Virus record (IMG/VR): IMGVR_UViG_3300032255_000010
Coordinates: 1-36,152 of that record
DNA length: 36,152 nucleotides
Origin: a virus
Taxonomy: Duplodnaviria; Caudoviricetes
Reading direction: 5' to 3' (one strand)
Below the pieces are notes generated by a model. That model ran no database searches. It saw only the letters and a program-made list of their open reading frames with translations, and was not told where the DNA came from. Of the stretch, positions 1 through 34,647 are shown piece after piece. Position 1 is the stretch's first letter. Each line of letters begins with the position of its first letter. Position numbers and translations under genes: made by a program.

Positions 1-150
1 AATTTGCACACAATCCGCCATCTCATCGCATACAACGGCATCATAATTATCGTGCGGGTCTCTTACTCCAAGGATGAAAAACGGTATAACAATGCCAATC
101 AACTCGGACTGGCCTTCGTCGGCACTTTGTTGTTTTGTTGTGTCATTCAT
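1..150 (-). CDS. Cassette-borne hypothetical protein, runs off the window start (MNDTTKQQSADEGQSELIGIVIP...)
   Basis: ATG at 150 preceded by AAGGA, inside attC 84-207; frame open to position 1; translated by hand. Confidence 0.65.
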   Translation of the reverse strand, partial: MNDTTKQQSADEGQSELIGIVIPFFILGVRDPHDNYDAVVCDEMADCVQI

Positions 151-207
151 GTTCGTTGTTCCTTTTAAGTTCATAGTTAGGCCATCCGGTTATTGGCGCA
201 GTTATGT
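84..207 (+). repeat. attC-like site (124 bp)
   Basis: GTATAAC...GTTATGT; left arm GCCAAT(C)AAC(T)CGGA(C)TGGCC pairs with GGCCATCCGGTTATTGGC leaving three extrahelical bases. Confidence 0.9.
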
Positions 208-321
208 TGCGTTATTCAGAATCATATTCACGGACGAAACACAAAGACGTTCTTGATTCTGCCAAATGTATTCCTTTTCAAAATCAGCAACAGCAGTCTT
301 GGCTTGTTGATATGTCAATAG

Positions 322-633
322 TTAGCGTCTGCCGTTCCATTTCGAGACAACATCTTCTTTTGAGTCGCCATCAATAGTGGCTCCACAACCATCTTTATGG
401 CTTTGGCAGACAAACTGATAGCACTGGTTCGGGTGTGTGTGGTTTCCTCCGTACACCCGGCAAAATTCGCCTTCACGCCAAGTTACCCCGCTCGGATATA
501 AGGCATCCTCTAAGTCCTCTTTAGTCATCTGTTTTCCGCAAAACGGGCAGGGCAACATAACAATGCCTGTCAACTCTGACTGGCCTAACGCGGTGTCTTC
601 TTTTAGTGCCGTGGCTTCGCTATTCTTTGTCAT
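322..633 (-). CDS. Lar-family restriction-alleviation-like Zn-ribbon protein
   Basis: LPCPFCG...C-x5-CGA...WNGRR pattern; GGAG and ATG lie inside attC 555-687. Confidence 0.7.
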   Translation of the reverse strand: MTKNSEATALKEDTALGQSELTGIVMLPCPFCGKQMTKEDLEDALYPSGVTWREGEFCRVYGGNHTHPNQCYQFVCQSHKDGCGATIDGDSKEDVVSKWNGRR

Positions 634-687
634 GTATTTTATCTCCGTGGTTTCTATTCGGCCATCCGGTTACCGGCAACGTTATAT
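555..687 (+). repeat. attC-like site (133 bp)
   Basis: ACATAAC...GTTATAT; arms similar to the 84-207 site; GCAACATAAC is the reverse complement of GTTATGTTGC at 201. Confidence 0.9.
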
Positions 688-894
688 TTTTCTAGCAATT
701 CGGCCTGATTCTACATCCCATGCCGCACCAGGATTTTCAACAAAGTGATTCAATGCCCACGCGCACAAGCAAGATGAACACAAGCATCTTAAATAACCTA
801 AATTTGAAGCATTAGCTCTCAATGCTTCAATTAAAACATCTTTATCTTCCAAGCCAGTGGCATCATCTGGCAGCATTTTAATTTCTAGGCTCAT
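682..894 (-). CDS. Cassette-borne hypothetical protein
   Basis: 70-aa ORF whose TAA stop is the core site at 681-687. Confidence 0.65.
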   Translation of the reverse strand: MSLEIKMLPDDATGLEDKDVLIEALRANASNLGYLRCLCSSCLCAWALNHFVENPGAAWDVESGRIARKI

Positions 895-907
895 ATCAAT
901 CTCAAAA

Positions 908-914
908 ATATAAC
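908..914 (+). repeat. Truncated attC (R'' box only) at the distal end of array A
   Basis: AAAAATATAAC is complementary to GTTATATTTTT at 681 and is followed by AATG like other sites; no convincing right arm. Confidence 0.6.
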
Positions 915-920
915 AATGTT

Positions 921-1064
921 TTAATGACGACCTGATCCATCAACATCACTATGCTCATCATCTGAATTTCCAGAGCATCGCTCATCTTTTCCAAGCCACA
1001 TGAATAGCACTAATGTGAAAACAGCGCCAGTTATTGATATGTCAAGCCAGATATAACCAGTCAT
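921..1064 (-). CDS. Small membrane protein (47 aa, MTGYIWLDISITGAVFTLVLFMWLG...)
   Basis: Hand-translated; ATGA overlap with the upstream ORF; one hydrophobic segment. Confidence 0.5.
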   Translation of the reverse strand: MTGYIWLDISITGAVFTLVLFMWLGKDERCSGNSDDEHSDVDGSGRH

Positions 1065-1165
1065 TTTATTATCCCCAATTTGTATAGAAGTATAAGAATA
1101 ACCGCCTCAATAACTACAAACACAGCTATCACGCCTATTACTGAAAAAAATGCTAACCAATCCAT
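1061..1165 (-). CDS. Small membrane peptide (34 aa, MDWLAFFSVIGVIAVFVVIEAVILILLYKLGIIK)
   Basis: Hand-translated; abuts the stop of the upstream gene and overlaps the next start. Confidence 0.5.
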   Translation of the reverse strand: MDWLAFFSVIGVIAVFVVIEAVILILLYKLGIIK

Positions 1166-1471
1166 TTAGAATGGTATCGTATCGTCAAAATCATCACGCC
1201 CGCTATTATCGTGCTGTTTGACTGGTTGCTGCGCTTGCTGTTGTGAGTCGTCGAAAATAGAAAACATCACCATACTACGAGATTGCTTCCCTTCTGCTAC
1301 TGCTAGCATGTTCTGTTTGGCCAGTACTCCAGCAAGATTTACGCAAGGATCAATTAGCGCATATTCGCCGTTATTGTTGCTGAGGACAACCCCAAGCTTA
1401 ATATAATCGCCGCACTGCTTGCCATCTTTATTTGTATAATTACCAACTTTTGCTTTTAATTGCTTGCTCAT
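1166..1471 (-). CDS. Putative single-stranded DNA-binding protein
   Basis: Q-rich linker and acidic C-terminal tail DDFDDTIPF; follows the exonuclease gene. Confidence 0.65.
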   Translation of the reverse strand: MSKQLKAKVGNYTNKDGKQCGDYIKLGVVLSNNNGEYALIDPCVNLAGVLAKQNMLAVAEGKQSRSMVMFSIFDDSQQQAQQPVKQHDNSGRDDFDDTIPF

Positions 1472-1495
1472 TTGCTTTCCTTTATTTATTACGGT

Positions 1496-2110
1496 CTAAA
1501 TAAACTGCTTAATCTCATCAACCAGCTTAAAAAATTCAACTTCTCTTTTTTCTATCTGCTTGAAATATTCTGTACATTCATTCCGATTAACCCTGAACAC
1601 AAACAGTCTTGTTCGTTCTGGAAAGTCTGCGCAGTAACTTACGAAGTCAATCCACTTTCTCTCTGTCTTTAATAAGTTGAAATAAATCTGCCACTTATAT
1701 GCCGGATCTATATTGTTTCGCTTAATGTTGGCATAGTGCACATAATCTAAAACGGATTTTATTTCAATCAATCCATCATCATAAACAAGCCCATCAGGAG
1801 AGCAGCCAGAGTTGCCGCAGTCAAAAAAACCACCGTTAGATACTTCAACAAAATATTTGCTCTCATAAAGCCCTCTTGCGACTGGTTCCTGTTTGTGGCC
1901 GCGCTCTGTATGTTGATTACTGAATGATTCAGACATTGACCGCTTGCCAGTTACCTGTTCCCTTGCTATTGATACAGCTAGTTTTTTAGCAGGTTCACCA
2001 AACGCCTTACCAAAGTTAGCCATGATTTTAGGACAGCCTGACCCGGTAAGCTTGGCAATCCGCATATCAAGCCATTCATCAGTATTTTGCGAAACATCAT
2101 GAAACTGCAC
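1496..2110 (-). CDS. YqaJ/lambda-exonuclease family protein
   Basis: QNTDEWLDMR, RGHKQEP, SPDGL, IEIK and YKWQ motifs; GTG start after AAGGAG. Confidence 0.9.
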   Translation of the reverse strand: MQFHDVSQNTDEWLDMRIAKLTGSGCPKIMANFGKAFGEPAKKLAVSIAREQVTGKRSMSESFSNQHTERGHKQEPVARGLYESKYFVEVSNGGFFDCGNSGCSPDGLVYDDGLIEIKSVLDYVHYANIKRNNIDPAYKWQIYFNLLKTERKWIDFVSYCADFPERTRLFVFRVNRNECTEYFKQIEKREVEFFKLVDEIKQFI

Positions 2111-2609
2111 TAGCTTGCTCCTTAATGGTCTGCTCATCTTCTTGAGATACATCAACAAACTTTCTTACAGCATCAAGATTTTTATCACGCTTGTAAGCAG
2201 CAATAGCTCTATCCCATGCTTCAGTGCCACTCTGTAACCGTTTGCGGCGTATAGGAGGCTCTGCGCTAATCCTAAGGCCCTCTACAGTGTCACGCCCAAA
2301 TCTGACGTTTGTGTCGACATAAATAGTCACCTGAATATTTTGCCAATCGTCGATAAACGGGGAGTTAACCAGGCCCTTCATGATCTTTGAATTATGCGCG
2401 TTTAGAATCATAGGTTTTAACTTCTCCCCTGGGCGAAGCTCTTTATCAACAAAATAAGCCGTGTTAAAAATATCCTTTGACTTCTTTGTTTGGTCAGGTT
2501 CAAGGCGAACGTGAGAGATTGTTAATACTGTTGGCTCTACAATGTCTGCGCTGCTTAGGTATGGCGAGTTAAACGCCTTCCTGTAATGTGTTTTGTTTTC
2601 TTGATTCAT
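2097..2609 (-). CDS. Phage protein, probable ssDNA-annealing partner of the exonuclease
   Basis: Directly upstream of the exonuclease; GAGGTGG RBS; function from synteny only. Confidence 0.55.
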   Translation of the reverse strand: MNQENKTHYRKAFNSPYLSSADIVEPTVLTISHVRLEPDQTKKSKDIFNTAYFVDKELRPGEKLKPMILNAHNSKIMKGLVNSPFIDDWQNIQVTIYVDTNVRFGRDTVEGLRISAEPPIRRKRLQSGTEAWDRAIAAYKRDKNLDAVRKFVDVSQEDEQTIKEQASAVS

Positions 2610-2772
2610 ATTCCACCTCTTCAAATATTATCTTGTCTGTTTTCCCTTGTTTGCAACATCGCCATTCCCAGCAAGCTCCATGATCAACGTCATTCAATTT
2701 TATGTGTCTTAAGCAACTGTTCTTTTTTTCACAATTAACCCCAACACAACGATGATCTGAAAATGAGATCAT
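2569..2772 (-). CDS. Small Cys-rich hypothetical protein
   Basis: C-x4-C-x5-C-x-R pattern; coupled to neighbouring ORFs. Confidence 0.5.
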   Translation of the reverse strand: MISFSDHRCVGVNCEKKNSCLRHIKLNDVDHGACWEWRCCKQGKTDKIIFEEVEYESRKQNTLQEGV

Positions 2773-2945
2773 ATATCGCCCTGCCTATCTAGCAAGACAG
2801 GCATCGGATTGCAGCCATTACAGGTTCTGTCGCTTCCAGGTATCCCGCAGCCAAAAGCAGCGCAAGAATCAGGATCAAATGCCACTTGTAGGCCGAGATG
2901 CTCTCTTGATTTTTTGATAAATTCATCTGTATGGGTCTCTTTCAT
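2769..2945 (-). CDS. Small Cys-rich hypothetical protein (MKETHTDEF...)
   Basis: Internal ATG of the listed ORF, overlapping the end of the upstream gene. Confidence 0.45.
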   Translation of the reverse strand: MKETHTDEFIKKSREHLGLQVAFDPDSCAAFGCGIPGSDRTCNGCNPMPVLLDRQGDI

Positions 2946-3177
2946 TGTCTTTGATGCTTTCTGCCCGCTCTTTATTGTCAATATACTTCTCCAAATCTTC
3001 CTCCGTCTGTACATTAGCTTTTCTAAGCGGTCGTTGTCTATATCGTAAAGGCGGCTCATCTTCATAACTAAAATTTTTGCTCTTTTCAAACGCATCATTT
3101 TCTTCGCGCTCTTGACGATCACGTATATAATTCGCCAGTTTATTAATATGCTCAACTGTTGCTGTAATAGATTTCAT
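2923..3177 (-). CDS. Hypothetical protein, first gene of the leftward early operon
   Basis: 84-aa charged ORF just downstream of the leftward promoter. Confidence 0.55.
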   Translation of the reverse strand: MKSITATVEHINKLANYIRDRQEREENDAFEKSKNFSYEDEPPLRYRQRPLRKANVQTEEDLEKYIDNKERAESIKDNERDPYR

Positions 3178-3208
3178 TTTAATCGCCTGTTTCGCTTATC
3201 GTGTGACT

Positions 3209-3236
3209 ACTATAGCATTTAAAAAACAAAAAACAA
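3209..3236 (-). promoter_or_regulatory. Leftward sigma70-type promoter
   Basis: TTGTTT-N16-TATAGT with TGn extended -10. Confidence 0.55.
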
Positions 3237-3249
3237 GTATATTATTTGC

Positions 3250-3279
3250 TTGATTTTTGCATTTATTTTGCACTATAAT
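3250..3279 (+). promoter_or_regulatory. Rightward sigma70-type promoter
   Basis: TTGATT-N18-TATAAT upstream of the HTH gene. Confidence 0.6.
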
Positions 3280-3302
3280 AAAGACATGGAAAGGAGATTT
3301 GC

Positions 3303-3494
3303 TTGAACGAAAAAGAATATAAAGAACTACTAAAGAAGGTTAAGCGTAGATTAACATATAGCCATATTCCTGCTGTTGTTAAAGAATCTAGATTGCCTGA
3401 TAGCTGGCTTAGACGTGTATCAAGCGGGGATATAAAAAGGCCACGGCAGGAACGTCTAAAAATACTTGCTAAATATTTCGGGTTAGTAGAATGA
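3303..3494 (+). CDS. Cro-like helix-turn-helix regulator
   Basis: 63 aa; IPAVVKESRLPDSWLRRVSSGDIKRP HTH-like segment; AAGGAG RBS; first gene after the divergence point. Confidence 0.7.
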   Translation: MNEKEYKELLKKVKRRLTYSHIPAVVKESRLPDSWLRRVSSGDIKRPRQERLKILAKYFGLVE

Positions 3495-3517
3495 TATCGC
3501 TTGGCACAAGCATTGCA

Positions 3518-3604
3518 ATATAACGTCATTTATTAAACGGAGAGACACCGCAGTATAGAAAAACACCTAAGTATCTGAGTCCGATTTGAGGAATTTTGTT
3601 ATGT
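3518..3604 (-). repeat. attC-like site (87 bp, partly degenerate)
   Basis: Minus strand ACATAAC...GTTATAT; visibly homologous to 4118-4202. Confidence 0.75.
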
Positions 3605-3626
3605 GCAGCTAACTGAGTAAAACGGT

Positions 3627-3809
3627 ATGACATTTGATGATTGGTGGAAAAAAGAAAGTTGATGGGGTAGCGAGACTTTGGATGAATATCAGTTGGCAAA
3701 AGCAGCATGGAATAAGGCAATAGAGCAAGCCGCTAATGAAGTAAGGGCAAGCCATGGCCATTGTGAGACATGGCTTGAAGTTTCTGACATTGAAGAATTA
3801 AGCGCATAA
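3627..3809 (+). pseudogene. Cassette gene interrupted by in-frame TGA at 3660 (MTFDDWWKKES*WGSETLDEYQLAKAAWNKA...)
   Basis: ATG and core-site TAA are in frame across 61 codons with one internal stop. Confidence 0.6.
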
Positions 3810-3861
3810 CGTTTAATTTCAGCCGCGCGGTTTTTGCGTCGGCTGGAAATTATTGTTATGC
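3804..3861 (-). repeat. attC-like site (58 bp)
   Basis: Minus strand GCATAAC-AATAATTT(C)CAGCCG(A)CGC...GCGGCTGAAATTAAAC-GTTATGC. Confidence 0.92.
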
Positions 3862-3877
3862 GATTTTTGGATGATAT

Positions 3878-4123
3878 ATGATGACACAGGACGAAATACA
3901 AGAGATCAAAGACTTGATCAGTGATGAGTACGACAAATGGCGGCTCGACGCCGGTGACTGGATAGGATATGCCGAGGAATTGGTTGAAGAGGTGGAGCGG
4001 CTTAGAGATGAACTGGATACGATCCGGATGCACGCCAATCCAGACATTATTGATTCGGATTGTTTTGTCTGTATATCAGCAACAGAATTTGGTCAAGTCA
4101 TGAATAGGGTTTTTGGTGCATAA
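3878..4123 (+). CDS. Cassette-borne hypothetical protein
   Basis: 81-aa ORF filling the space between two attC sites; stop in the core site. Confidence 0.7.
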   Translation: MMTQDEIQEIKDLISDEYDKWRLDAGDWIGYAEELVEEVERLRDELDTIRMHANPDIIDSDCFVCISATEFGQVMNRVFGA

Positions 4124-4202
4124 CGTCAATTTTAAGCGGCGAACCACTGAAGTATAAAAGAACGCCGCGTTAACTGAGTCCGCTTGAAAATTTTTGTTAG
4201 GC
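4118..4202 (-). repeat. attC-like site (85 bp)
   Basis: Minus strand GCCTAAC-AAAAATTTT(C)AAGCGG(A)C...GCCGCTTAAAATTGAC-GTTATGC. Confidence 0.92.
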
Positions 4203-4225
4203 GGGCTACGAAGTGAGGAAACACG

Positions 4226-4417
4226 ATGGATTGGACGGATAAAACTTTTTGTAATCACGGGATATCTTTTTCAAATGAATGCGAGAGATGCGAAATAGTT
4301 GGGCTTGAAGAAAGCCTTAAATGGATGAAGCGGAAAGTTTCCCGCGATGAGAAGCGATTAGCTGAACTCGAAGACAAGCACACGCCTGAAATTGTTAAGA
4401 AGATGCGTAACGCCTAA
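4226..4417 (+). CDS. Cassette-borne hypothetical protein (C-x-H...C-x2-C)
   Basis: GAGGA RBS; stop in the core site. Confidence 0.7.
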   Translation: MDWTDKTFCNHGISFSNECERCEIVGLEESLKWMKRKVSRDEKRLAELEDKHTPEIVKKMRNA

Positions 4418-4472
4418 CCGCGCAAAACACCGAGCGAGCAAAGCGAGTCCGAGTGATTTTGCTTTGTTATGT
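4412..4472 (-). repeat. attC-like site (61 bp)
   Basis: Minus strand ACATAAC-AAAGCAAAA(T)CAC(T)CGG...TCGGTGTTTTGCGCG-GTTAGGC. Confidence 0.88.
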
Positions 4473-4498
4473 GGAAACTACAAATGATTAGTTGACAG

Positions 4499-4927
4499 TT
4501 GAAAAACGAAAATTACAAAGATTGGCCACTTTTTGATGATATGCCAAGCGGCTGGACGATAGACAAAACCTGCGGGTCTCCACTGGCTGGATATGTATTT
4601 ATCAGCGATTGGAGGAGCATTCTGCGCGGCGGGAAACGGGCACTGCTTAGGGTGAGAAAGCCGAAACAGCAGTTGTGCCTCGATGCTCAACCCGTTACCA
4701 AAATGGAATCAGCTGCTGACGAAACGGAAGCGGCAAAAATAGAGCAACCATACCCTGTGAGAACCGTAAACGAACTAGCTAGGGAGCGGTTTAAGCTGAG
4801 GCTGTTAAATGATATTCGTTGTGATTTGATGATCTGCGAATTAGAGGGATGGGGGAAAATGGAATACATAAACGAGATTAGGAGGCTGGTAAATGAAATT
4901 GGCAGCCGAGTTACGATAGACACATAA
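4499..4927 (+). CDS. Cassette-borne hypothetical protein
   Basis: 142-aa ORF ending in the core site of the attI-like element; start uncertain. Confidence 0.7.
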   Translation: MKNENYKDWPLFDDMPSGWTIDKTCGSPLAGYVFISDWRSILRGGKRALLRVRKPKQQLCLDAQPVTKMESAADETEAAKIEQPYPVRTVNELARERFKLRLLNDIRCDLMICELEGWGKMEYINEIRRLVNEIGSRVTIDT

Positions 4928-4978
4928 CACTGGGCTATACACACATGATAAGATAGGAGTAATAAAAACAATGGTTTA
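4922..4978 (-). other. attI-like recombination site heading array B
   Basis: Minus strand GTATAGC-CCAGT-GTTATGT (imperfect L box, 5-bp spacer, R box); 45/54 identical to 31009-31062. Confidence 0.75.
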
Positions 4979-5594
4979 CAGCGGCTGACATTCCATTACA
5001 GCTATGCATAAAGCCAGGTGGCGCTATATTTCCAGAAATAATATTGTTAATTATTGAGAAAATAGGCTATAGTTAATTTTTTATAAATTTCTGGCAATAA
5101 TAAGCAAGGCAAATAAAAACCCACCTATTATAGAGCGACGATCTCTAAGGTGGGTTTAAAGTGTCGAGATGACTGAAGAAGTATCGTTTAATTTAATCTT
5201 CTTGTCAACCTCAATACTAAAACTCTATCTAATTATAGAGTTAACCCAAAAAATAAATCGTCCCCGGTCGGGTATACCAACGGCAGCGGGAATCTGTGTA
5301 GACGGCAATAACTAGCCCTTTGAGACCGAGGGAGCCAAGCGTAACCAGCACGTGAAGGCACAAAATCGGGTTAGTGGTGATCTTTAACGATGCAGGGTGA
5401 CACTCCTGTCCAATACCTGGGTAAGTGTGTTCTGTAACAATATAGTTATTGCTGACTAGCGGAAAGGGACAAATTACAATACTCCCTTTTAAATGATTTA
5501 TGATATGACTGTGATTAATATAGATCACCCTAAGGTCAGTGATATGTATTGCCTAAATAAAATTAACAGTTATGAATATAATAAAGGGGATAAT

Positions 5595-6131
5595 ATGAGA
5601 CTACATAAAGACGACATTTCAGACATAGTTGATCAGTTATTCGAAAAGTTAATTGCTGAAAAGAAAAGTAGAAAACAGCAAAATCTAAGAAGTGCAAGAA
5701 AACCAAATTTTAGTGGTTATCCAGATTGGTTTGAGGGTTTATGGGTAGATTATCCAAGACGTAAGGATGGAAATAGTAAGGCAAAAACGTATGCGTGCTG
5801 CATGCGCAGGATTAAAGAAGGGTATAGTGAAAATTATTTGCATGAGAAAACCAGAGTGTATGCAGCCCATTGTGAATCTGAGGGGAAAATTGGGACTAAT
5901 TTTGTATTAATGGGGAGTACGTTTTTTGGTAGCGATTTGAGATTTGATGATATATGGACTATAGCTAAAACTAATAAATCAGATAATCCAGAGTTTAAGA
6001 TTCCAAGAAATAACGAAGAATTATGGAATTTTGCAAAAAAATATAATTACCCATCACCTGGATCACGAACATTCAGCGAATATCGTAAATTATTAGATAA
6101 TGAGGTTGAGAAACGACTAAAATCAAAATAG
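5595..6131 (+). CDS. Putative phage replication initiator-like protein
   Basis: FEGLWVDYPRRK...SKAK motif typical of phage initiator C-terminal domains; AAGGGG RBS before 5595; position before the nin region. Confidence 0.55.
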   Translation: MRLHKDDISDIVDQLFEKLIAEKKSRKQQNLRSARKPNFSGYPDWFEGLWVDYPRRKDGNSKAKTYACCMRRIKEGYSENYLHEKTRVYAAHCESEGKIGTNFVLMGSTFFGSDLRFDDIWTIAKTNKSDNPEFKIPRNNEELWNFAKKYNYPSPGSRTFSEYRKLLDNEVEKRLKSK

Positions 6132-6139
6132 GAGGAACT

Positions 6140-6328
6140 GTGTATAATAAAATACAGGCAGGTGAATTTGTAACGGTAGCGTCTTTTGATGACCCTGACA
6201 AAGTAATGTTTACCGGGATAGTGTTGTCGTATAATCGTACAGACAGGACATACACAATCAATCCAGGCGTGGATCTAAGAAACCGTGATGTAAACGAGTG
6301 TAGAGTTGCGAGAGTTGAAGATGACTAA
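6140..6328 (+). CDS. Hypothetical protein
   Basis: AGGAGG RBS, GTG start. Confidence 0.6.
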   Translation: MYNKIQAGEFVTVASFDDPDKVMFTGIVLSYNRTDRTYTINPGVDLRNRDVNECRVARVEDD

Positions 6329-6482
6329 ACCAAAAAAACATCAGGCATTTTCAATATCTCGATTCAAGGATAGGGTGAAATCATATCCAGAATTAACTAT
6401 TGAAGACCGTAAAAAAGTTGAAAAGCGCAGGCGACTGGAAGAGATTATGGAAAATAAACAACAAGAAAACGACATCTGGTGA
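6321..6482 (+). CDS. Hypothetical protein (53 aa, MTKPKKHQAF...)
   Basis: Hand-translated; overlaps both neighbours, GTGA junction with ninG. Confidence 0.5.
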   Translation: MTKPKKHQAFSISRFKDRVKSYPELTIEDRKKVEKRRRLEEIMENKQQENDIW

Positions 6483-7096
6483 ATGAAAAAACCTGCAAAG
6501 CTTGTTTATCTGAGTTCAAACCTACCAGGTCGTTTCAGAAAGTGTGCTCACCTAAATGCGCGATTAAATTAGTGAATGCTAATAAAGAAGAGAAAAAGGC
6601 AAAGGCGTGGCGTTTAGAGAAGAAAATAAGAAAAGAAAAGCTGAAAAGCAAAAGCGAGTGGGTAAAAGAGGCAGAATATGCCTTCAGACGGTATATAAGG
6701 GCGCGTGACAGGCTTTTTTACGCAAAGCAAGGCAAACCTCATGAATGTATATCTTGTGGCACTACAAGCCCTCACATTCAATATGCCGCTGGACACTACA
6801 AAACAAAAGGCGCCTATCCAGAGCTAAGGCTGGATGAGAGGAATTGTTATTTGCAATGTAACAAACGATGCAACATGGAGTTATCTGGAAATATCAACGG
6901 GACAAAAGATACCCATGGTTACAAAGAAGGCCTAAAGATGCGATTCGGTGATGAAGAAGGGGAAAAGATCATTGATTATCTTGAGTCCCACCATCCAGCT
7001 GAAAATTGGACTATAGACGATCTTTCAAGGATGAAATCTGAATTTAACAAAAAGGCAAATGATATCGAAAAACAACTGTCTGATATACTTACATAA
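6479..7096 (+). CDS. ninG: NinG/Rap-family recombination endonuclease
   Basis: CKAC...QKVCSPKCA, YIRARD, CISCG, AGHY, N-x3-QC-x3-CN motifs. Confidence 0.9.
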   Translation: MNEKTCKACLSEFKPTRSFQKVCSPKCAIKLVNANKEEKKAKAWRLEKKIRKEKLKSKSEWVKEAEYAFRRYIRARDRLFYAKQGKPHECISCGTTSPHIQYAAGHYKTKGAYPELRLDERNCYLQCNKRCNMELSGNINGTKDTHGYKEGLKMRFGDEEGEKIIDYLESHHPAENWTIDDLSRMKSEFNKKANDIEKQLSDILT

Positions 7097-7160
7097 TAAT
7101 CTTAAATAACCTACAATTATGTAACGTTATGGGTGAACTAAAATCATTAACATTAATTTA

Positions 7161-7466
7161 TTGCGGCCGAAAAAGTGTAACTGCCTGTTATGGGCGTGGC
7201 TGATGTGGTTTAATTGCGGTGGTTGTTTGGTTTGGCGCTGGTCTTATGTTGGTTGGTGGCCGCATGTGTTTTGGTCGCCTGATAGTTGCAGGTTGTTTGA
7301 GTATGTGCCCAATGAGTATGAATGCGGACGATGGTTTCCGCCGTTAATATTTAAAGGCCATGTTCAGGAAATGCTAACTGAGGTTGTTTGCAAAAGTGTT
7401 GTGATTGATGGTATGCATAAAAAAACGTGCATGGATCTGACGCAGCATCTAAAGCGACAACTGTGA
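7161..7466 (+). CDS. Trp/Cys-rich hypothetical protein
   Basis: ORF only; start uncertain. Confidence 0.5.
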   Translation: MRPKKCNCLLWAWLMWFNCGGCLVWRWSYVGWWPHVFWSPDSCRLFEYVPNEYECGRWFPPLIFKGHVQEMLTEVVCKSVVIDGMHKKTCMDLTQHLKRQL

Positions 7467-7484
7467 TTATTTAGGTAACTGAAA

Positions 7485-7709
7485 ATGTTCAAAAAATGGG
7501 TAATAAACATACTGATCAGTATTGATCAACTAGCTAATGCTCTGACTGGCGGTGATCCAGATGAGACTATATCTAGCCGTATGGGTAAACGATTGGATAA
7601 CTGTAAGGCGTGCCGGTTTATCTGCAAAATACTTAATAGGTTAGATTGGCGCAATGTTGACCATTGTAGAAATGCTATTGAACTAGACGAGGGTAAAGAT
7701 GGATTATAA
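7485..7709 (+). CDS. Small phage protein (IDQLANALTGGDPDETISSR type)
   Basis: Motif recurrent in phage late regions; function unknown. Confidence 0.7.
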   Translation: MFKKWVINILISIDQLANALTGGDPDETISSRMGKRLDNCKACRFICKILNRLDWRNVDHCRNAIELDEGKDGL

Positions 7710-8573: not shown

Positions 8574-8574
8574 G

Positions 8575-11771: not shown

Positions 11772-11780
11772 GGAGTTCAT

Positions 11781-11822
11781 ATGGGCTGCAAGAAGAAAAA
11801 AGGCGGCGGTAAGCGCAAATGA
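11781..11822 (+). CDS. 13-aa basic micropeptide MGCKKKKGGGKRK
   Basis: AAGGAG RBS; stop overlaps the next ATG (ATGA). Confidence 0.55.
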   Translation: MGCKKKKGGGKRK

Positions 11823-25768: not shown

Positions 25769-25777
25769 GGGTATAAA

Positions 25778-29179: not shown

Positions 29180-29713
29180 GTGATCAAAATGGCACTTAAT
29201 AGTGATGATATCGCCCTTTTAGACCCAGAAATGCAGGAGCGGGTAGAGGAGTTCATTGCCCATTGTAAATCTGCACAGTTCGGTGTGTTGCTGTATAGCG
29301 GTCGACGATCTTTTGAAGATCAGGCAAGGCTTTTCAGACAGGGCCGTTCGATGGGCTCAATCAAGGCAAAGGCTGCTGAGTTGCGTGATAAGTGGCAGCG
29401 GCCTGACCTGGCTGACATCCTGATTGGCGTAGGCCCACAGAAGGGAAAAAAGATTGTCACAAACGCTGGTCCTGGCCAGTCTGACCATAACTATGGCGGT
29501 GCGGTCGATGGCGTACCTATGGTTGGCGGCAAGCCCGTCTGGGGCACTGACTCATACGAGGATAAGGAAGTTTGGCACCAATACGGAATGATTGCGATAA
29601 GTGCTGGGCTTGAATGGGCGGGTAACTGGACGAGCTTCAGGGAGTATCCACATTTAAAGCTGCCGAGCATGGATTGGCGCGAGCTGATTAAGGATTCTGA
29701 ATATGAGCTATAA
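29180..29713 (+). CDS. Endolysin, M15-family peptidase
   Basis: RSFEDQARL, VTNAGPGQSDHNYGGAVD, LEWAGNW...EYPH. Confidence 0.9.
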   Translation: MIKMALNSDDIALLDPEMQERVEEFIAHCKSAQFGVLLYSGRRSFEDQARLFRQGRSMGSIKAKAAELRDKWQRPDLADILIGVGPQKGKKIVTNAGPGQSDHNYGGAVDGVPMVGGKPVWGTDSYEDKEVWHQYGMIAISAGLEWAGNWTSFREYPHLKLPSMDWRELIKDSEYEL

Positions 29714-29912
29714 CGGAATCATAAAGAAAAGTCGTTCGCTTGACCTAGCCGCATTAAGTCAGTTTGTTGACGCAGGCGCTCTTGCCATATTGGCGTATTC
29801 CCCCGAAGACCTTGGGATTACCGTTCCTACCTATGCAGTTGTGCGGGTAGCAATCAACGTACTGCAGGCGTATTTGCGCTTCAAGACAACAGGCCCTGTA
29901 GGAGATAAATAA
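29703..29912 (+). CDS. Putative holin
   Basis: Hydrophobic segments, LRFKTTGPV end; follows the endolysin. Confidence 0.6.
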   Translation: MSYNGIIKKSRSLDLAALSQFVDAGALAILAYSPEDLGITVPTYAVVRVAINVLQAYLRFKTTGPVGDK

Positions 29913-30121
29913 TGATTAGTAAACTAATGGGTTTGGTAACTGGAATTATGGCGGCTATAGCGCTGTTCTTTAAGGTTAAAGCCGATTCTACTCGTAACAA
30001 AGCTCAGAAAGAGAAGATCGACAAATATGAGGAGGTTATCGACGATGTGGAAACTGCTAGGCGTACTCGCGCTGATGATAATGAGCGGATGCGCGTTGAA
30101 GACAAATACACCCGTAAGTAA
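29912..30121 (+). CDS. Putative inner-membrane spanin (Rz-like)
   Basis: N-terminal TM helix plus charged helical tail; overlaps a lipoprotein gene. Confidence 0.7.
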   Translation: MISKLMGLVTGIMAAIALFFKVKADSTRNKAQKEKIDKYEEVIDDVETARRTRADDNERMRVEDKYTRK

Positions 30122-30227
30122 TTACTGTCTCCTCTATAATCCTATCTACACGTCACCAGATGACACTAGAGAGACTATAGATCAGGTTGTTGATAACAAT
30201 GTAGTCTACGACAAACTATGCGAATAG
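30045..30227 (+). CDS. Putative outer-membrane spanin lipoprotein (Rz1-like)
   Basis: GAGGAGG RBS, signal peptide with lipobox MSGC, overlapping frame. Confidence 0.75.
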   Translation: MWKLLGVLALMIMSGCALKTNTPVSNYCLLYNPIYTSPDDTRETIDQVVDNNVVYDKLCE

Positions 30228-30691: not shown

Positions 30692-30710
30692 TTATCACCC
30701 ATTTCACATA

Positions 30711-31016: not shown

Positions 31017-31065
31017 TGTTTTTACGCTCCCTACCTTATCAGGTGTGTATAGCCCAGTGTTAGGT
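31009..31065 (+). other. attI-like recombination site heading array A
   Basis: GTATAGC-CCAGT-GTTAGGT; inverted copy of 4925-4978. Confidence 0.75.
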
Positions 31066-31083
31066 GACAACGGGGGTTATTAA

Positions 31084-31548
31084 ATGATTGAACATTTGCC
31101 ATTAGCTTTATCATCTCTTAGTACGGCTCTTGATATTGGAAAGAGCTTGGTAGGTATCCGCGATACTGCAAAACTTCAAGACGAGATTGTGAAATTCAAC
31201 AGCATCATAATCGGTGCGCAATCCGAAATAATGGCGTCTCAAAATGAACAAGCGTCTATGGTTAGAAAAATAGGAGAGCTTGAAAAAGAATGTATGCGCC
31301 TTAGTGATTGGGAAGCTGAAAGAAAAAGATACGCGAGAAAGGAAGTCGCTACTGGTGTTTTTGTATACATAGAAAATGACTATGTGGGCAAATTTGAAAA
31401 CGCGCATAAATATTGCTGCAATTGTCTCGATAATTACAAGAAGTCCACACTTCAGCAATTCAATATTACAGAAGGTCGGAAAATTTGGCTTTCGTGTCAT
31501 AACAAATGTCCTGATTTAATATTTCGCCACTACAATGATGTCACCTAA
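31084..31548 (+). CDS. Canonically oriented cassette gene: coiled-coil plus Zn-ribbon hypothetical protein
   Basis: Bounded by GTTAGGTGACA and TGTCACCTAAC; stop in R''; CCNC...CHNKC. Confidence 0.8.
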   Translation: MIEHLPLALSSLSTALDIGKSLVGIRDTAKLQDEIVKFNSIIIGAQSEIMASQNEQASMVRKIGELEKECMRLSDWEAERKRYARKEVATGVFVYIENDYVGKFENAHKYCCNCLDNYKKSTLQQFNITEGRKIWLSCHNKCPDLIFRHYNDVT

Positions 31549-31653
31549 CAAAAGCGGTCAAGAAGGACAGTCCTACGCGGCGTTCGTTTGTGCTGAAAAA
31601 CCTAGCACAAGCCTCTCACCGCTACGGCATGCCTCTTACCGCTGGCGTTATAC
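31543..31653 (+). repeat. attC-like site (111 bp)
   Basis: ACCTAAC-AAAAGCGGT(C)AAGA...TCTTACCGCTGGC-GTTATAC. Confidence 0.9.
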
Positions 31654-32190
31654 CGCACTGCCAAGCTCGGCGGTACATTCAACCTCGTTACCCCATACGT
31701 CCCAGCCTTCGTGAGGATCACGGCAGAATAACTCTACTCTTGGTCTATCTCCGCTCACCTCAACAATCATCTCTCTAAACATATTTGGCTTTTCCGAATG
31801 CTTAAGCCGCTTATGCTCAAAAGCAGTTCTATCAATCCTTTTCTCGGCCTTAAGTGTGCCTCGGCGACAAAACAGTAAATGCTCGGTAGTTTGCACATAT
31901 GTTCCACCGATACCTATTCCGTGAGGTGGCTTCACCCATGTCAACATACAGCTTGGCTTAAAGCCCCACGCCTTAGCAACTTCGTAGCTTTCAGCTATGT
32001 ATTTATTTATCACCCACAGGTAGAGGTGTGCGTTTTTGTCCGCTATCGCCTTTACTGGCAGCGCCTTAATTTCGTCAATGCTCATTGTCGGGTAGGGCAG
32101 TGGCTTCGATGGCCCGTTGCTATTCCAATCTGGTCCGCGCTTAACGTCCCAAGGCGGGTCGGCGTAAATCACTTGGTATTTCTTTGTCAT
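31648..32190 (-). CDS. MT-A70-family adenine methyltransferase
   Basis: YQVIYADPPW, YPTMS, LYLW, TEHLL, HSEKP, RVELFCR...GWDVWGNE; CAGGAG RBS. Confidence 0.92.
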   Translation of the reverse strand: MTKKYQVIYADPPWDVKRGPDWNSNGPSKPLPYPTMSIDEIKALPVKAIADKNAHLYLWVINKYIAESYEVAKAWGFKPSCMLTWVKPPHGIGIGGTYVQTTEHLLFCRRGTLKAEKRIDRTAFEHKRLKHSEKPNMFREMIVEVSGDRPRVELFCRDPHEGWDVWGNEVECTAELGSAV

Positions 32191-32215
32191 AAATTTTAAC
32201 TCCTGTGTATGCGCG

Positions 32216-32294
32216 GTATAACAAGGCAAATTAACAGCGACATTCACCGCGTCGCTTCGCTCCTTGTTCATGCGCGTTATTTGCGATGTTATGC
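32216..32294 (+). repeat. attC-like site (79 bp)
   Basis: GTATAAC-AAGGCAAAT(T)AAC(A)GCG...CGCGTTATTTGCGAT-GTTATGC. Confidence 0.9.
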
Positions 32295-32561
32295 GTCATT
32301 CTCAGCCAGCCAATCAATGCACTTTTGGCGGAATTTCCCCGCAATCTCTAAAGCTTTATCTTTTGTGGTCCATCCTGAAATTCCCTCCCAGCCAACGGTT
32401 TGCCCGTTTACTGTCGGGCACCAATAATTTATTGGCCGCCCATGTGGGTTTTGTTCACTGTCGCTCATGTCTTCAGGCCACGTTCCGGCTTGGTTCCACA
32501 ACATTTCCTGCTTCACTCCAATTTTACCGCTTGCCAGACCTGCAATTTGTTGTCTATCCAT
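32289..32561 (-). CDS. Cassette-borne hypothetical protein
   Basis: GGAGG RBS immediately after attC; stop in the core site. Confidence 0.7.
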   Translation of the reverse strand: MDRQQIAGLASGKIGVKQEMLWNQAGTWPEDMSDSEQNPHGRPINYWCPTVNGQTVGWEGISGWTTKDKALEIAGKFRQKCIDWLAENDA

Positions 32562-32574
32562 TATCAATCCTCCC

Positions 32575-32649
32575 GCATAACAATGCGCTTAAGTTCGCTT
32601 CACTTCGTTCCGCCGGACGGCTTCGCCACCGCTTAGCTTGGCGTTAGGT
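32575..32649 (+). repeat. attC-like site (75 bp)
   Basis: GCATAAC-AATGCGCTTAAG...CTTAGCTTGGC-GTTAGGT. Confidence 0.88.
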
Positions 32650-32799
32650 GGACTTAATGTCCGAGTGTATCCAGCAAAGCTTTCCTAAAATTGCCCACGC
32701 TATACCGTTGGTTAAGCTCCGCTCCTCTATCCCAATTCCTAGAGTTCTGGCAATAGCAAATCCTAGGAAGCCCCAGCCCATTAGTTCATTTGCGCTCAT
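32644..32799 (-). CDS. Small hydrophobic protein, second gene of a two-gene cassette
   Basis: ATGA overlap with the upstream gene; stop in the core site. Confidence 0.5.
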   Translation of the reverse strand: MSANELMGWGFLGFAIARTLGIGIEERSLTNGIAWAILGKLCWIHSDIKST

Positions 32800-33056
32800 C
32801 TCCATGGCCAAATCATAGCGAGCCGATAGAATCGATGTTTCATAAGCCAGTAAGTTATCGGTCCGCATTCAATCCAATCAAAGTTTGGCGTCGCTTCAAT
32901 TATCCGATCAAGGTCTTCTTGCTTTGTGCATTTAACGCTGGCTGTGCATCCGTTCCAATCCGTATAAACAGCATAAAAGCGTGGAGTAAAAAGCCACCTA
33001 ACAACAGGCTCTAAGGGACCACTGGCCGCGACGTTCGTTGCATTCTGCTTGTTCAT
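32796..33056 (-). CDS. Cassette-borne hypothetical protein starting inside attC
   Basis: ATG in the loop of attC 32996-33118. Confidence 0.65.
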   Translation of the reverse strand: MNKQNATNVAASGPLEPVVRWLFTPRFYAVYTDWNGCTASVKCTKQEDLDRIIEATPNFDWIECGPITYWLMKHRFYRLAMIWPWR

Positions 33057-33118
33057 AGTCTCAATACTCTTCGTTTTAATTCAGCGTGGCCAGTGGCCCC
33101 TAAGCCTTACCGTTATAC
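32996..33118 (+). repeat. attC-like site (123 bp)
   Basis: ACCTAAC-AACAGGCTCTAAGGGACCACTGGCC...GGCCAGTGGCCCCTAAGCCTTACC-GTTATAC. Confidence 0.88.
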
Positions 33119-33424
33119 ATCTAATTCTGTTACAGTCTTTCTGGCTCTCGCGCCAGGTTTAGGGTAGTCATAATCATCGTTATCGGCAAAATCAGTCATA
33201 AACTCACCTGCAGGGTTATCGGGTAAAAATGCAATAGCGTGGTAGTGTTCTGGGTCTGCGTAAAACCACACGGTATTAACAAGTTTGTTTAAGTAGATTA
33301 CTATTTCGTCGGGCGTTAGCGGCTTCCCATGCTTTAATATTGCCGGACCATTAGCCGTAACACATTGAGAGAAAACACTATAGTCATGTATAACAAGTGC
33401 ATTAACATCGTTCGTTTCACTCAC
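33113..33424 (-). CDS. Cassette-borne hypothetical protein starting inside attC
   Basis: AAGGAGGT SD and GTG within attC 33388-33463; stop in the core site. Confidence 0.7.
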   Translation of the reverse strand: MSETNDVNALVIHDYSVFSQCVTANGPAILKHGKPLTPDEIVIYLNKLVNTVWFYADPEHYHAIAFLPDNPAGEFMTDFADNDDYDYPKPGARARKTVTELDV

Positions 33425-33463
33425 TGCGACCTCCTTCGTCGGCGCGTTATGCAGGCGTTATGT
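33388..33463 (+). repeat. attC-like site (76 bp)
   Basis: GTATAAC-AAGTGCAT(T)AAC...GTTATGCAGGC-GTTATGT. Confidence 0.88.
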
Positions 33464-34111
33464 TGCACTAATACGCTCTTGTGCAATCTTAAAGTATTCT
33501 TCGTCTAGCTCTATACCGATAAATTTGCGGTTTAAGTTTTTACATGCAACGCCTGTTGAACCGCTGCCCATAAACGGGTCTAAAATTATCCCGTCCTTAT
33601 TAGATAGTCCGCTAATCAATGTACTTAATAAATCAACGGGCTTTTCAGCTCCGTGGTGCTCTTTTTTTAATGGGGCTTTTATTATCGTTGGAATATGGGT
33701 TAGTTTTTCTTTATTCAGCTTTAAACTGTCTCTATTTGCGTAAAAAATAATCTCATGCTGCTTTCGAAAAGGGTTTCCCATTCCTATTCTGCCCTTATCC
33801 CATACCACTATATTTTTTTGCTTCCATTCATAAAATAAGCCCATTAACACAGCGCTATAAACATCATCACAAAACACAAGAATAGGCGCATTTGGCTTTA
33901 ATAAGCGTCCCCACTCTTTCTTTATTGCTGAAAAATAAAACTCCTGTATAGCTAAATCAGAAAGCCGGTTTACAACTTTTCGCCCGAATGCGTGGACGGT
34001 TGGGCTTGTGTAAGGCGGGTCGGTTAAAATCATATCAACCGAACCATCTGGTATTTCTTTCATCATCTCAAGGCAATCGCCTTGCATCAGTGTAATCATA
34101 GTGGTTTCCAT
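33458..34111 (-). CDS. N6-adenine/N4-cytosine DNA methyltransferase (beta class)
   Basis: GDCLE, TDPPY, H.AEKP, LDPFMGSGSTG, FIGIEL. Confidence 0.93.
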   Translation of the reverse strand: METTMITLMQGDCLEMMKEIPDGSVDMILTDPPYTSPTVHAFGRKVVNRLSDLAIQEFYFSAIKKEWGRLLKPNAPILVFCDDVYSAVLMGLFYEWKQKNIVVWDKGRIGMGNPFRKQHEIIFYANRDSLKLNKEKLTHIPTIIKAPLKKEHHGAEKPVDLLSTLISGLSNKDGIILDPFMGSGSTGVACKNLNRKFIGIELDEEYFKIAQERISAT

Positions 34112-34128
34112 AGTTCAGTGTAGGTGCA

Positions 34129-34188
34129 GCCTAACAATGGCATTAACGCGGACAACAAAAAGCGTTGCCTGTTATGCGGGCGTTATGC
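34129..34188 (+). repeat. attC-like site (60 bp)
   Basis: GCCTAAC-AATGGCAT(T)AACGCGGACAAC...GTTGCCTGTTATGCGGGC-GTTATGC. Confidence 0.88.
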
Positions 34189-34593
34189 GTCAATTTCAGC
34201 TATCTGTTCTAACGCATTCCTAATGTTCAAGGCTGTGCCAAACAAGTGGTTATTTCCGTCCGGCGCACCATCGTAGTTGTCATGCCAAAAATCCCAGTCG
34301 TATGCACTTCTTGGCATGGGTTTTGGGTTGTACTCAATATGCCACCCGTCCGGGGCTAGACCATCAATAAACGAAGTCAGTACATTTATCCTGCCTTTGG
34401 CGGCAACTAGCGATTCTATGGAGGCAATAGCAGCGTCAATATCAAGCCCTAAGCTTTTCGGTTCTGGCTGCTCACCATCTCCACCCCTACGCCATTCGTT
34501 GTAGCGTTTTAAACGCATAACAAGGCAATTTAACTCGGACCCAACTACCGCAGTGGTCGCTTCAAGTTTTATGGTTTCTGATAAGTTCATCAT
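34183..34593 (-). CDS. Cassette-borne hypothetical protein starting inside attC
   Basis: AGGA and ATG in the loop of attC 34515-34647; stop in the core site. Confidence 0.7.
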   Translation of the reverse strand: MMNLSETIKLEATTAVVGSELNCLVMRLKRYNEWRRGGDGEQPEPKSLGLDIDAAIASIESLVAAKGRINVLTSFIDGLAPDGWHIEYNPKPMPRSAYDWDFWHDNYDGAPDGNNHLFGTALNIRNALEQIAEIDA

Positions 34594-34647
34594 TCGCTTA
34601 GTCCTGTGGTTTTGTTCCCGTTGGTCCGGTTAATTGCAACGTTATGT
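34515..34647 (+). repeat. attC-like site (133 bp)
   Basis: GCATAAC-AAGGCAATT(T)AAC(T)CGGAC(C)CAAC...GTTGGTCCGGTTAATTGCAAC-GTTATGT. Confidence 0.9.

Follow-up and report, generated by a model that had tools for sequence, protein, structure and literature searches.

attC arrays of an integrase-less phage

The window (the whole stretch of 36,152 nucleotides that was analysed) is the complete 36-kb contig of a podovirus-like phage. It carries about 14 attC sites, split into an array of 10 (array 1, 31543-36033 plus 84-687) and an array of 4 (array 2, 3518-4472). A search with the PF00589 profile found no tyrosine recombinase in the phage, the record of which is estimated to be 97% complete; both arrays have the form of CALINs, with at least two attC sites close together and no integron integrase nearby. 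Among the cassette genes are two for DNA methylases and one for a Lar-like protein. The sites and adjacent genes are as follows.

84..207, top strand +: attC S9, leader type; 62-nt unstructured loop with AAGGA and ATG 150 (also ATG 174) on the - strand
1..150, -: S9 cassette gene, 5' portion only, truncated by the contig end (complete 92-aa form in L036); no start codon downstream of R''
555..687, top strand +: attC S10, leader type; loop with GGAG and ATG 633, in-frame ATG 558 in the R'' box
322..633, -: Lar-like (restriction-alleviation-like) gene, putative start in the S10 loop; in-frame TAA at 322-324, where L053 continues to 143 aa
31543..31653, top strand +: attC S1, bacterial type with a structured loop, after the sole top-strand (canonical) cassette gene, 31084-31548
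32216..32294, top strand +: attC S2, short; the MT-A70 methylase gene 31648-32190 (-) begins 28 nt past the site with its own AGGAG
32575..32649, top strand +: attC S3, short; gene 32289-32561 (-) begins 16 nt past the site, anti-SD duplex -10.3 kcal/mol
32996..33118, top strand +: attC S4, leader type; loop with ATG 33056 and a weak Shine–Dalgarno (SD) sequence
32796..33056, -: S4 86-aa ORF, putative start in the S4 loop, no alternative; overlaps ORF 32644-32868, which stops on the S3 R' TAA
33388..33463, top strand +: attC S5, 76 bp; contains AAGGAGGT and GTG 33424
33113..33424, -: S5 103-aa gene, putative start within attC S5, no alternative start
34129..34188, top strand +: attC S6, short; the N6_N4 DNA methylase gene 33458-34111 (-) begins 20 nt past the site
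34515..34647, top strand +: attC S7, leader type; loop with AGGA and ATG 34593/34590, in-frame ATG 34518 in the R'' box
34183..34593, -: S7 136-aa gene with an RLKRYNEWRRG domain, putative start in the S7 loop
35974..36033, top strand +: attC S8, short; adjacent gene 35497-35859 (-) begins about 118 nt past the site
3518-3606, 3804-3861, 4118-4202 and 4412-4472, top strand -: array 2 attC sites T0 (weak), T1, T2 and T3; genes on +, each starting after its site

A scanner that looks for the pattern TAACAA...GTTA with a stem found 9 attC sites in the window, against 0-2 (mean 0.45) over 20 shuffles. Five further sites (S3, S5, S6, S10 and the weak T0) lie under the scanner thresholds and were picked by eye. 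All 14 start with TAAC and finish with GTTA on the top strand and have R''/R' core boxes of the form RYYYAAC/GTTRRRY, several of them being ATAAC/GTTAT, one base from the consensus. DNA folds give an unpaired spacer (an internal loop of 2-3 nt) and then a stem of 12-19 pairs, with the S10 stem seen in the RNA fold only. Two or three extrahelical bases bulge from one arm of the L stem only, the 5' arm of the + strand, which is the 3' arm of the - strand. The four long sites (123-133 bp, counting the 7-bp R boxes) are the only ones above 120 bp and, as had been described from the sequence-only reading, are all of the leader type. The structured S1 is 75-85% identical to attC sites of gammaproteobacterial chromosomal integrons.

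The window sites are real attC sites. It is scarcely credible that the hairpins belong to some other class of repeat, such as terminators or REP/MITE-like elements; the absence of an integrase from the phage and the lack of any match to Rfam families fit such a reading, but the anatomy is that of a complete attC down to the one-sided bulges, no T-runs were seen after the stems, homology breaks at the crossover, and members of the same sub-family stand beside intI in bacterial arrays of canonical cassettes.

Cassettes of reversed polarity

Integron cassettes are classically described as a promoterless gene followed by a non-coding attC, both read on the top strand. In the window, genes lie on the attC bottom strand at 13 sites, and only the S1 cassette (31084-31548, +) has a top-strand ORF upstream of its own attC. 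Three orientation tests place the window gene strand on the attC bottom strand. The top strand of a reference Vibrio integron with intIA (L003) is marked by 5' TAACAAA and by bulges in the 5' arm, and the window + strand is alike; extrahelical bases have been located near L'' (Nivina 2016, consulted in part). The attC sub-family of the window also includes 64 unique sites of bacterial type: 55 have an ORF of at least 60 codons within 700 nt on the R'' side, and 53 of these ORFs share the strand of the pattern, the top strand. In G003 such a site is found about 19 kb away from intI, which runs divergently to the top strand of the site; an integron integrase scores above the curated cut-off in four of the five bacterial genomes that bear these sites. 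The phage genes are thus carried in the reverse of the bacterial arrangement. It follows that every attC forms the 5' end of the cassette to which it belongs, with the crossover (R') upstream of the loop and with attC and gene in the same cassette, which in the direction of the gene reads C, L' arm, loop, L'' arm, R'', gene, TAA.

The cassette stop codon is formed by the final three bases ahead of the crossover: an ORF of at least 40 codons stops on the R' TAA at 10 of the 14 window sites and at all four sites of G001. Comparison with other contigs gives the same boundaries. From TAAC to TAAC, window 684..201 matches L053 at 469 of 484 positions between unrelated flanks, and homology to L036 and L034 likewise starts at the R' TAAC. 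Contigs of other runs cover 33111-33463, 3-204 and 298-686 and then diverge. Against L053, L036 and L034 and contigs of runs X3, X4 and X5, the breaks fall within 0-3 nt of R' boxes, at the expected G|TT boundary. The R' boundary of the S9 cassette is seen against both L036 and run X4, and the whole S5 cassette (33111-33463) is found in an unrelated context in run X3. Cassettes of the whole reversed form are present in different arrays of other contigs, which is indirect evidence that an integron integrase may recombine them. The arms of S7 also recur with an 18-nt loop in run X5.

With normal polarity, as the sequence-only reading would imply, the attC of an upstream cassette would donate a ribosome-binding site (RBS), start and leader to whatever cassette follows. 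Every leader-type ORF does cross R'' in a single frame, some leaderless sites show a homology break at R'' (the S2 attC alone, without its cassette, is common to contigs of runs X3 and X5), and one gene follows different attC sites in L053 and G001. However, the single frame stems largely from stop codons: frame 1 is shut within the arm by TGA or TAA, and frame 2 closes either at the R'' end (S4, S5, S9) or ahead of its own start codon (S7, S10). Together with the orientation tests, the finding that leader and gene travel together and break at R' in every leader-type comparison available already disfavours donation, which we regard as very improbable. The idea of a 'portable' leader was for the same reason only partly right, in that RBS, start and leader do lie in the site but are not handed from site to gene, both being in one cassette. 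That reading had overlooked the array at 3518-4472, five further short sites of array 1 and the placement of genes on the bottom strand.

Candidate start codons inside attC loops

At five sites (S4, S5, S7, S9 and S10) a start codon lies within the loop, with an SD sequence at four, and the frame that opens there crosses the L''/R'' arm and enters the gene. The starts, SD strings and leader peptides are all in the sequence as first described:

S9: ...GQSELIGIVIP, from ATG 150 or ATG 174, with AAGGA
S10: ...GQSELTGIVML, from ATG 633, with GGAG
S4: ...GPLEPVVRW, from ATG 33056, anti-SD duplex just -2.4 kcal/mol
S5: ...DVNALVIH, from GTG 33424, with the near-perfect SD AAGGAGGT 5 nt before the GTG (-12.4 kcal/mol)
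S7: ...GSELNCLVMR, from ATG 34593, with AGGA

The similar leader tails (G-x-S-E-L-x-x-x-V) arise because homologous L''/R'' arms are read in frame 0. For the S4, S5 and S9 genes the loop start is the sole start, with none at or after R'', whereas in S10 and S7 the R'' box offers an in-frame ATG as a possible alternative. S4 lacks a real SD, and a homologue search with its ORF found none.

When the loops were shuffled as a chance control, a start with an open frame, seen at 6 of 14 sites, was expected at 3.0 (p ~0.09, not significant alone). Adding an SD of -4 kcal/mol or better left 4 sites against 0.86 expected (p ~0.011), and adding the frame of the cassette gene gave p ~2e-4, with a frame factor of 1/3 assumed. 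Loop structure divides 72 unique sites into 64 with structured loops (-0.14 to -0.55 kcal/mol per nt) and 8 with unstructured loops (-0.002 to -0.022). Seven of the eight unstructured loops have an ATG 22-28 codons ahead of R'', and in the five of those not truncated by a contig end the frame extends 32-117 codons past the site. At short sites, in the window and in G001, genes start 10-30 nt past R''. Predicted RNA folds leave the loop initiation regions unpaired with a probability of 0.52-0.88, against 0.20-0.21 for the R-box AUGs, which lie in the predicted stem without an SD. Among relatives of the leader-type loops, SD, ATG and frame are kept, with leader lengths of 25, 25, 25, 23 and 21 codons; the exception is L034, one of three S10-type variants, in which ATA replaces the loop ATG. 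Changes in the leader peptide between relatives are mostly non-synonymous, and there is therefore no sign of selection on the peptide.

From these features we infer that the attC loops are translation-initiation regions and that the L''/R'' arm encodes the N-terminus; with RBS and start codon in the loop, the attC is therefore likely, at these five sites, to encode the N-terminal 12 to 26 residues of the protein. The corresponding claim of the sequence-only reading gains indirect support from the three genes with no other start, the unstructured loops, the conserved SD, ATG and frame, the mostly unpaired starts and the lack of a leader in homologues outside cassettes.

Homologues with and without the leader

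If the loop frames were by-products, the true starts would be the R''-box ATG or codons further downstream, and the leaders would be untranslated 5' regions. We consider this unlikely. It would accommodate the in-frame R''-box ATGs of S10 and S7, the missing loop ATG of L034, the gene call for P0003, which starts at the R-box Met, and the non-significance in the window of start and open frame alone. The Lar-like protein also fits: its match to the Lar profile PF14354 (21.4 bits against a curated cut-off of 28.6, hence below it, E 3.1e-4; PHROG 599, E 1.2e-6) begins at M26, and the Lar domain needs nothing upstream. Against it stand S5, S9 and S4, which have no start at or after R'' (S5 with its near-perfect SD), the R-box AUGs, which have no SD and are predicted to lie in the stem, and the unstructured loops with their conserved frame.

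The family of the S7 protein adds to this. The motif is carried by 107 family proteins, and in 25 of these a long N-terminus precedes [LCR]V-x-[RQ][LM], with a median of 27 residues against 12 in the remaining family proteins. In 13 of the 25 the R-box position is not Met, and an upstream start is therefore needed. The L-V-(R/K/E/M) signature suggests that the leaders of these leader-bearing proteins may be attC-encoded.

The sequence-only reading had also proposed to check whether non-cassette homologues lack the leader, and they do. Besides the Lar match from M26, P0002, a homologue of the S5 gene, is without the 14 leader residues, and L087 and L088, which lie outside cassettes, start 6-16 residues before RLRRYNEW. 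The attC-encoded L-V-x of the S7 family aligns with the native L-I-x of non-cassette homologues, and an AlphaFold model of the S7 protein has residues 4-35 as one helix (pLDDT 82-95), with L-V-x inside this helix 1.

A further alternative takes the loop ORF as a coupling device that opens the hairpin, with the working protein made by re-initiation at the R-box ATG or downstream and the fusion incidental; both forms may coexist. Such a role has been reported for ORF-11, ORF-17 and ORF-18 of attI1 and for short ORFs in attC, according to the parts consulted of a review (PMC8876359). Two observations fit: in L001 the loop ORF stops 33 codons past the site, on a TGA overlapping the GAGGAG that belongs to the following gene, and the leaders show no conservation at the peptide level. 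In the window, however, no stop separates leader from gene in any of the five cases, and re-initiation is therefore not needed; three of the five genes have no internal start, and the alignment of L-V-x with native L-I-x, together with its modelled place inside helix 1, is at odds with an incidental fusion. Coupling of this kind appears unlikely.

Proposed mechanism and implications

The reading that we favour, and consider likely on these patterns, is that the phage, which has no integrase, carries integron cassettes of reversed polarity, and that at five of them translation probably starts in the attC loop, with the arm encoding the first residues. In the early-operon mRNA each attC would fold up as a hairpin. 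Where the site is short and structured, the gene would retain a ribosome-binding site of its own, 10-30 nt behind this hairpin; where the site is long, the variable loop would have been recoded into an unstructured, A-rich stretch with SD and start codon. Ribosomes would load in the loop and cross the 3' arm in the sole frame open throughout it, melting the stem as they proceed into the gene. The leader would be an add-on, selected chiefly for its translatability and not for its own sequence, and cassette shuffling would depend on a host integron integrase.

More tentatively, phages might hold their own pool of reverse-polarity cassettes, in which attC serves as a 5' expression module (RBS, start and disposable leader in the loop) and the crossover gives the stop. 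Host integrases could then shuffle packed anti-defence genes between phages, and exchange at R'' in the open frame would allow leaders and genes to be re-paired. We see this wider scheme as possible, with the balance somewhat against it.

The recombination site is used here in the opposite direction and likely doubles as coding sequence, so that recombination structure and protein N-terminus would constrain each other. Cassettes of this kind will be mis-annotated by gene callers and attC finders, with starts possibly misplaced or the sites taken for intergenic sequence. The arrangement also suggests a phage-side route for exchanging accessory genes.

Relation to known systems

Our literature search found no paper describing reversed phage cassettes with starts in the attC loop. 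The consulted parts of Qi et al. 2023 (PMC9892861) describe 17 phage CALINs with as few as two sites each, in typical co-oriented arrays, and report that IntI1 recombined phage attC sites. These CALINs resemble the window in having a phage-borne row of attC without intI and cassettes of orphan DNA methyltransferases; the window differs in its roughly 14 sites, 13 with bottom-strand genes and 5 with a start inside the site. The term 'start codon' does not occur in that paper, and its sections consulted mention neither reversed polarity nor coding loops.

ORF-11, ORF-17 and ORF-18 in attI1 and a short ORF in attC (Hanau-Bercot 2002 and Jacquier 2009, via the consulted parts of PMC8876359) likewise place an SD and a start codon inside an integron recombination site; in the window, SD and candidate start are present at 4-5 sites. 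According to that review, translation of such ORFs is said to help the following gene to be expressed and to relieve the hairpin of the attC; the hairpin may, however, matter less than Jacquier 2009, as known through the review, reported. As described there, those are short ORFs of the top-strand mRNA that stop ahead of the gene and work through coupling, and ORF-11 spans the crossover point. Here, by contrast, the ORFs lie on the bottom-strand mRNA, are fused in frame to the gene and are wholly within their own cassette.

Gammaproteobacterial chromosomal attC sites (L004-L081) share the R'', L'', L' and R' arms (AACTCNGAC...TCCGGTTA) and the bulges of the window sites, but have loops of 49-59 nt, a long extra stem and genes on the top strand. 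Reverse-oriented cassettes of chromosomal integrons (the L003 methyltransferase at 29527-30195, and toxin-antitoxin cassettes) also have genes that run antisense to the top strand of the attC. Such cassettes are exceptional within a bacterial array and come with a promoter and 5' region of their own, the start of the L003 gene being about 100 nt from its attC, whereas in the phage reversal is the rule and the attC carries the putative start.

attC arrays in a podovirus-like genome

The window is an entire record of 36,152 bases with an estimated completeness of 97%. PHROG matches on its + strand form a P22-like set (replication protein, NinG, large terminase, portal, scaffold, major head protein, ejection protein and endolysin), and an early-left block with a YqaJ-type exonuclease lies on the − strand. 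We found no tyrosine recombinase in the window, and Megablast of positions 1–12000 against known phages returned no match.

By reading the sequence and pairing TAAC with GTTA, we listed the following integron attC sites:

31543–31653, top strand +, attC site S1
32216–32294, top strand +, attC site S2
32575–32649, top strand +, attC site S3
32996–33118, top strand +, attC site S4
33388–33463, top strand +, attC site S5
34129–34188, top strand +, attC site S6
34515–34647, top strand +, attC site S7
35974–36033, top strand +, attC site S8
84–207, top strand +, attC site S9
555–687, top strand +, attC site S10
within 3518–4472, top strand −, attC sites T0 (weak), T1, T2 and T3

Single-strand folds have the attC plan: the R boxes pair, a spacer of 2–3 nt stays unpaired, and an L stem bulged on one side leads to a variable loop. 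Scanning for TAACAA...GTTA together with a stem recovered nine sites, compared with 0–2 in 20 shuffles; the remaining five fall under the thresholds of the scan. No Rfam family matched at gathering thresholds. A gapless repeat search found only the arms of S4, because bulges interrupt the other arms. An inverted repeat at 830–848/907–925 (TAACAATG at 911) was rejected as an eleventh site, given that the bases resembling a box are on the loop side of its stem.

The sole canonical cassette spans 31059–31653: GTTAGGT at 31059 precedes a top-strand open reading frame (ORF; PHROG 1244) with its TAA inside R'' of S1. S1 is of the bacterial type, with a structured loop, and shares 75–85% identity with attC sites from gammaproteobacterial MAGs (labelled Chromatiales, Sedimenticola and Psychromonas), a likeness that hints at the host group.

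Most cassette genes lie on the attC bottom strand

As a reference integron we used the Vibrio phage record MK672802, which has intIA and a cassette array according to table 1 of Qi 2023. The strand that carries its cassette genes reads 5' TAACAAA, with the extra bases placed in the 5' arm and GGCGTTATG at the end; the + strand of the window reads in the same way. Extrahelical bases lie near L'' and define the bottom strand, according to the accessible part of Nivina 2016. A pattern built from the arms of S7, S9 and S10 retrieved 66 metagenome and 12 genome loci, yielding 72 unique sites. An ORF of at least 60 codons occurs within 700 nt on the R'' side at 55 of 64 bacterial-type sites, and in 53 of these 55 it is carried by the pattern strand and ends at R''. 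Of the five bacterial genomes with such sites, four encode an integron integrase that scores above the curated cut-off; in one of the genomes recovered (G003), intI (431762–432706, +) is divergent from the top strand of a site near 411.7 kb. The three orientation tests agree, and the − strand genes of the window are therefore on the attC bottom strand. The second array is likewise bottom-strand, with the strands exchanged.

This second array (3518–4472) sits in the early-right operon, with genes on the + strand and attC top strands on the − strand; all of these genes begin 10–30 nt past their own site and have the R' TAA as stop codon. T2 shares 93% identity with a site that adjoins the S9-type cassette in the related locus L036. 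The ORF of the T0–T1 cassette (3627–3808) has an in-frame TGA after 11 codons (MTFDDWWKKES*), immediately after an A run; a short gene starting at TTG, a slip and a broken gene are the possible readings.

Five genes likely start within attC loops

All in-frame starts were listed with their anti-Shine–Dalgarno (SD) duplex energy. At S2, S3, S6, S8 and T0–T3, the gene starts past the site (for example, ATG 32190 behind AGGAG, and ATG 32561 at −10.3 kcal/mol). The proposal made from the sequence alone, that some genes begin inside the attC loop, agrees with the sequence at S4, S5, S7, S9 and S10, where a start codon in the loop opens a frame that continues across R'' into the cassette ORF. This loop start is the only one at S5 (GTG 33424, AAGGAGGT, −12.4), S9 and S4; S10 and S7 have an additional ATG in the R'' box, without an SD. 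Frame 0 is used at all five sites; a TGA or TAA in the arm closes frame 1, and frame 2 is blocked at the end of R'' in S4, S5 and S9, and ahead of its own start codon in S7 and S10. A related phage (G001) has the same split: at three short sites the start lies 20–25 nt behind R'', and at a fourth, of 128 nt, it lies in the loop.

Within the window, a start plus an open frame occurs at six sites (3.0 expected), and a start, an open frame and an SD at four (0.86 expected); adding the frame match gives p ~2e-4, on an assumed factor of 1/3. This within-window case against chance is modest, and the comparative evidence is stronger. Folding energies of the 64 bacterial-type loops range from −0.14 to −0.55 kcal/mol per nt, compared with −0.002 to −0.022 for eight leader-type loops, in which translation would run from a loop start through the L''/R'' arm into the gene (S7, S9 and S10 of the window, and related loci L001, L034, L036, L047 and L053). 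Seven of these eight have an ATG 22–28 codons before R'', and the leader frame extends 32–117 codons past the site in the five that are not cut by a contig end. The leaders measure 25, 25, 25, 23 and 21 codons, and in three lineages their SD and ATG align. In predicted RNA folds, the initiation regions of the loops are mostly unpaired (0.52–0.88) and the R-box AUGs mostly paired (0.20 and 0.21 unpaired).

Several observations count against loop starts. Locus L034 has ATA in place of the loop ATG, the gene call of a protein homologue (P0003) begins at the R-box Met, and leader peptide sequences are not conserved. S4 lacks an SD and a relative and is overlapped by a second ORF. The S4 cassette (32644–33056) comprises two overlapping ORFs, one starting in the loop and a second that stops at the R' TAA of S3; together they may be one gene with a frameshift, and neither has a tblastn match in known phages.

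Homologues of the cassette proteins

The S7 protein is a member of a large family (1,076 proteins at E 0.001 or better). Two DNA loci of this family were recovered, L087 and L088; both are outside cassettes, start 6–16 residues before the motif RLRRYNEW and lack the leader. The motif is present in 107 of 154 family proteins examined. In 25 of the 107, [LCR]V-x-[RQ][LM] follows a long N terminus (median of 27 residues, compared with 12 in the rest); x is Met in 12 of these proteins and differs in the other 13 (R in four, A in three, V in two, and Q, E, K and I in one each). A residue other than Met would fit a GTT-RRR box and need an upstream start. A structural model of the S7 protein has residues 4–35 as one helix (pLDDT 82–95), weakly backing the leader as part of the protein. 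The Lar profile begins at M26 of the S10 protein, and the 14 leader residues are absent from a relative of the S5 protein (57% identity). When the S5 and S7 proteins were each searched singly against viral contigs, no relatives were found, and the S9 cassette protein matched only itself.

The RLRRYNEWRRG...DIDAA N-terminal domain (34183–34593) defines this large family of small proteins, which has no Pfam or PHROG name, and occurs fused to a wide variety of C-terminal parts. At 322–324 the Lar-like gene is interrupted by an in-frame TAA; L053 carries a sense codon there and continues to 143 amino acids, ending on the R' TAA. The copy in the window is thus shortened to 103 amino acids, and this truncation accounts for the 117-nt gap before S9 (205–321).

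Cassette boundaries and the origin of the leader

Given this polarity, a cassette would run, in the direction of its gene, C, L' arm, loop, L'' arm, R'', gene, TAA, and the homology data fit. Window positions 684..201 match L053 from TAAC to TAAC (469 of 484 identical) between unrelated flanks. Homology to L034 begins at the same TAAC, and homology to L036 begins at the TAAC of S9. Contigs from other sequencing runs span 33111–33463 (the S5 cassette, with one difference), 3–204 and 298–686 and then diverge from the window; run X8 has no match on window positions 1–1000, and none of the runs listed for this DNA is an RNA run. The R' TAA is the exact end of an ORF of at least 40 codons at 10 of 14 window sites and at all four sites of G001. 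Other breaks fall at R'' instead: the S2 site alone (32218–32291) lies between unrelated flanks in contigs of runs X3 and X5, different attC sites precede the same gene in L053 and G001, and in X5 the S7 arms enclose a loop of 18 nt in place of 84 nt.

The attC had been read as a portable source of ribosome-binding site, start and N terminus for the gene behind it. It does look like a translation-initiation region encoding an N-terminal add-on; judged from the cassette boundaries, the leader is part of the cassette's own 5' portion and is not donated across the crossover. Translation would melt the mRNA hairpin of the attC, consistent with Jacquier 2009 as reported in PMC8876359 and tempered by Carvalho 2024, as far as the accessible parts of these sources go. 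Start codons within attI1, and short ORFs in attC, are already known (accessible text of PMC8876359), as are phage CALINs that carry methylase cassettes (Qi 2023, in the part available). In the literature searched, which was that outside subscription journals, neither reversed phage cassettes nor starts within attC loops were described.

Variation at the array edges

One X5 contig retains the S5 gene with its GTG and SD and diverges 1 nt upstream of the SD (33429–33436). At 844–948, related phages in seawater runs have an attC R'' joined at 844 (X3) or an S5-type R' joined at 948 (X4), so the right-hand edge of the variable array differs among relatives; the ORF at 682–894 may itself be accessory.

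Cassette genes are cut at both contig ends (1; 36040–36152), and the end of a zinc-ribbon-like ORF (CPEC...CGDC) at 36040–36152 leaves the contig at 36152. A circular junction of the two ends was ruled out by L036, in which the S9 gene continues differently. Together with the ORF cut at 36152, this makes the array an assembly break rather than a closed circle, perhaps caused by cassette variation within the population.
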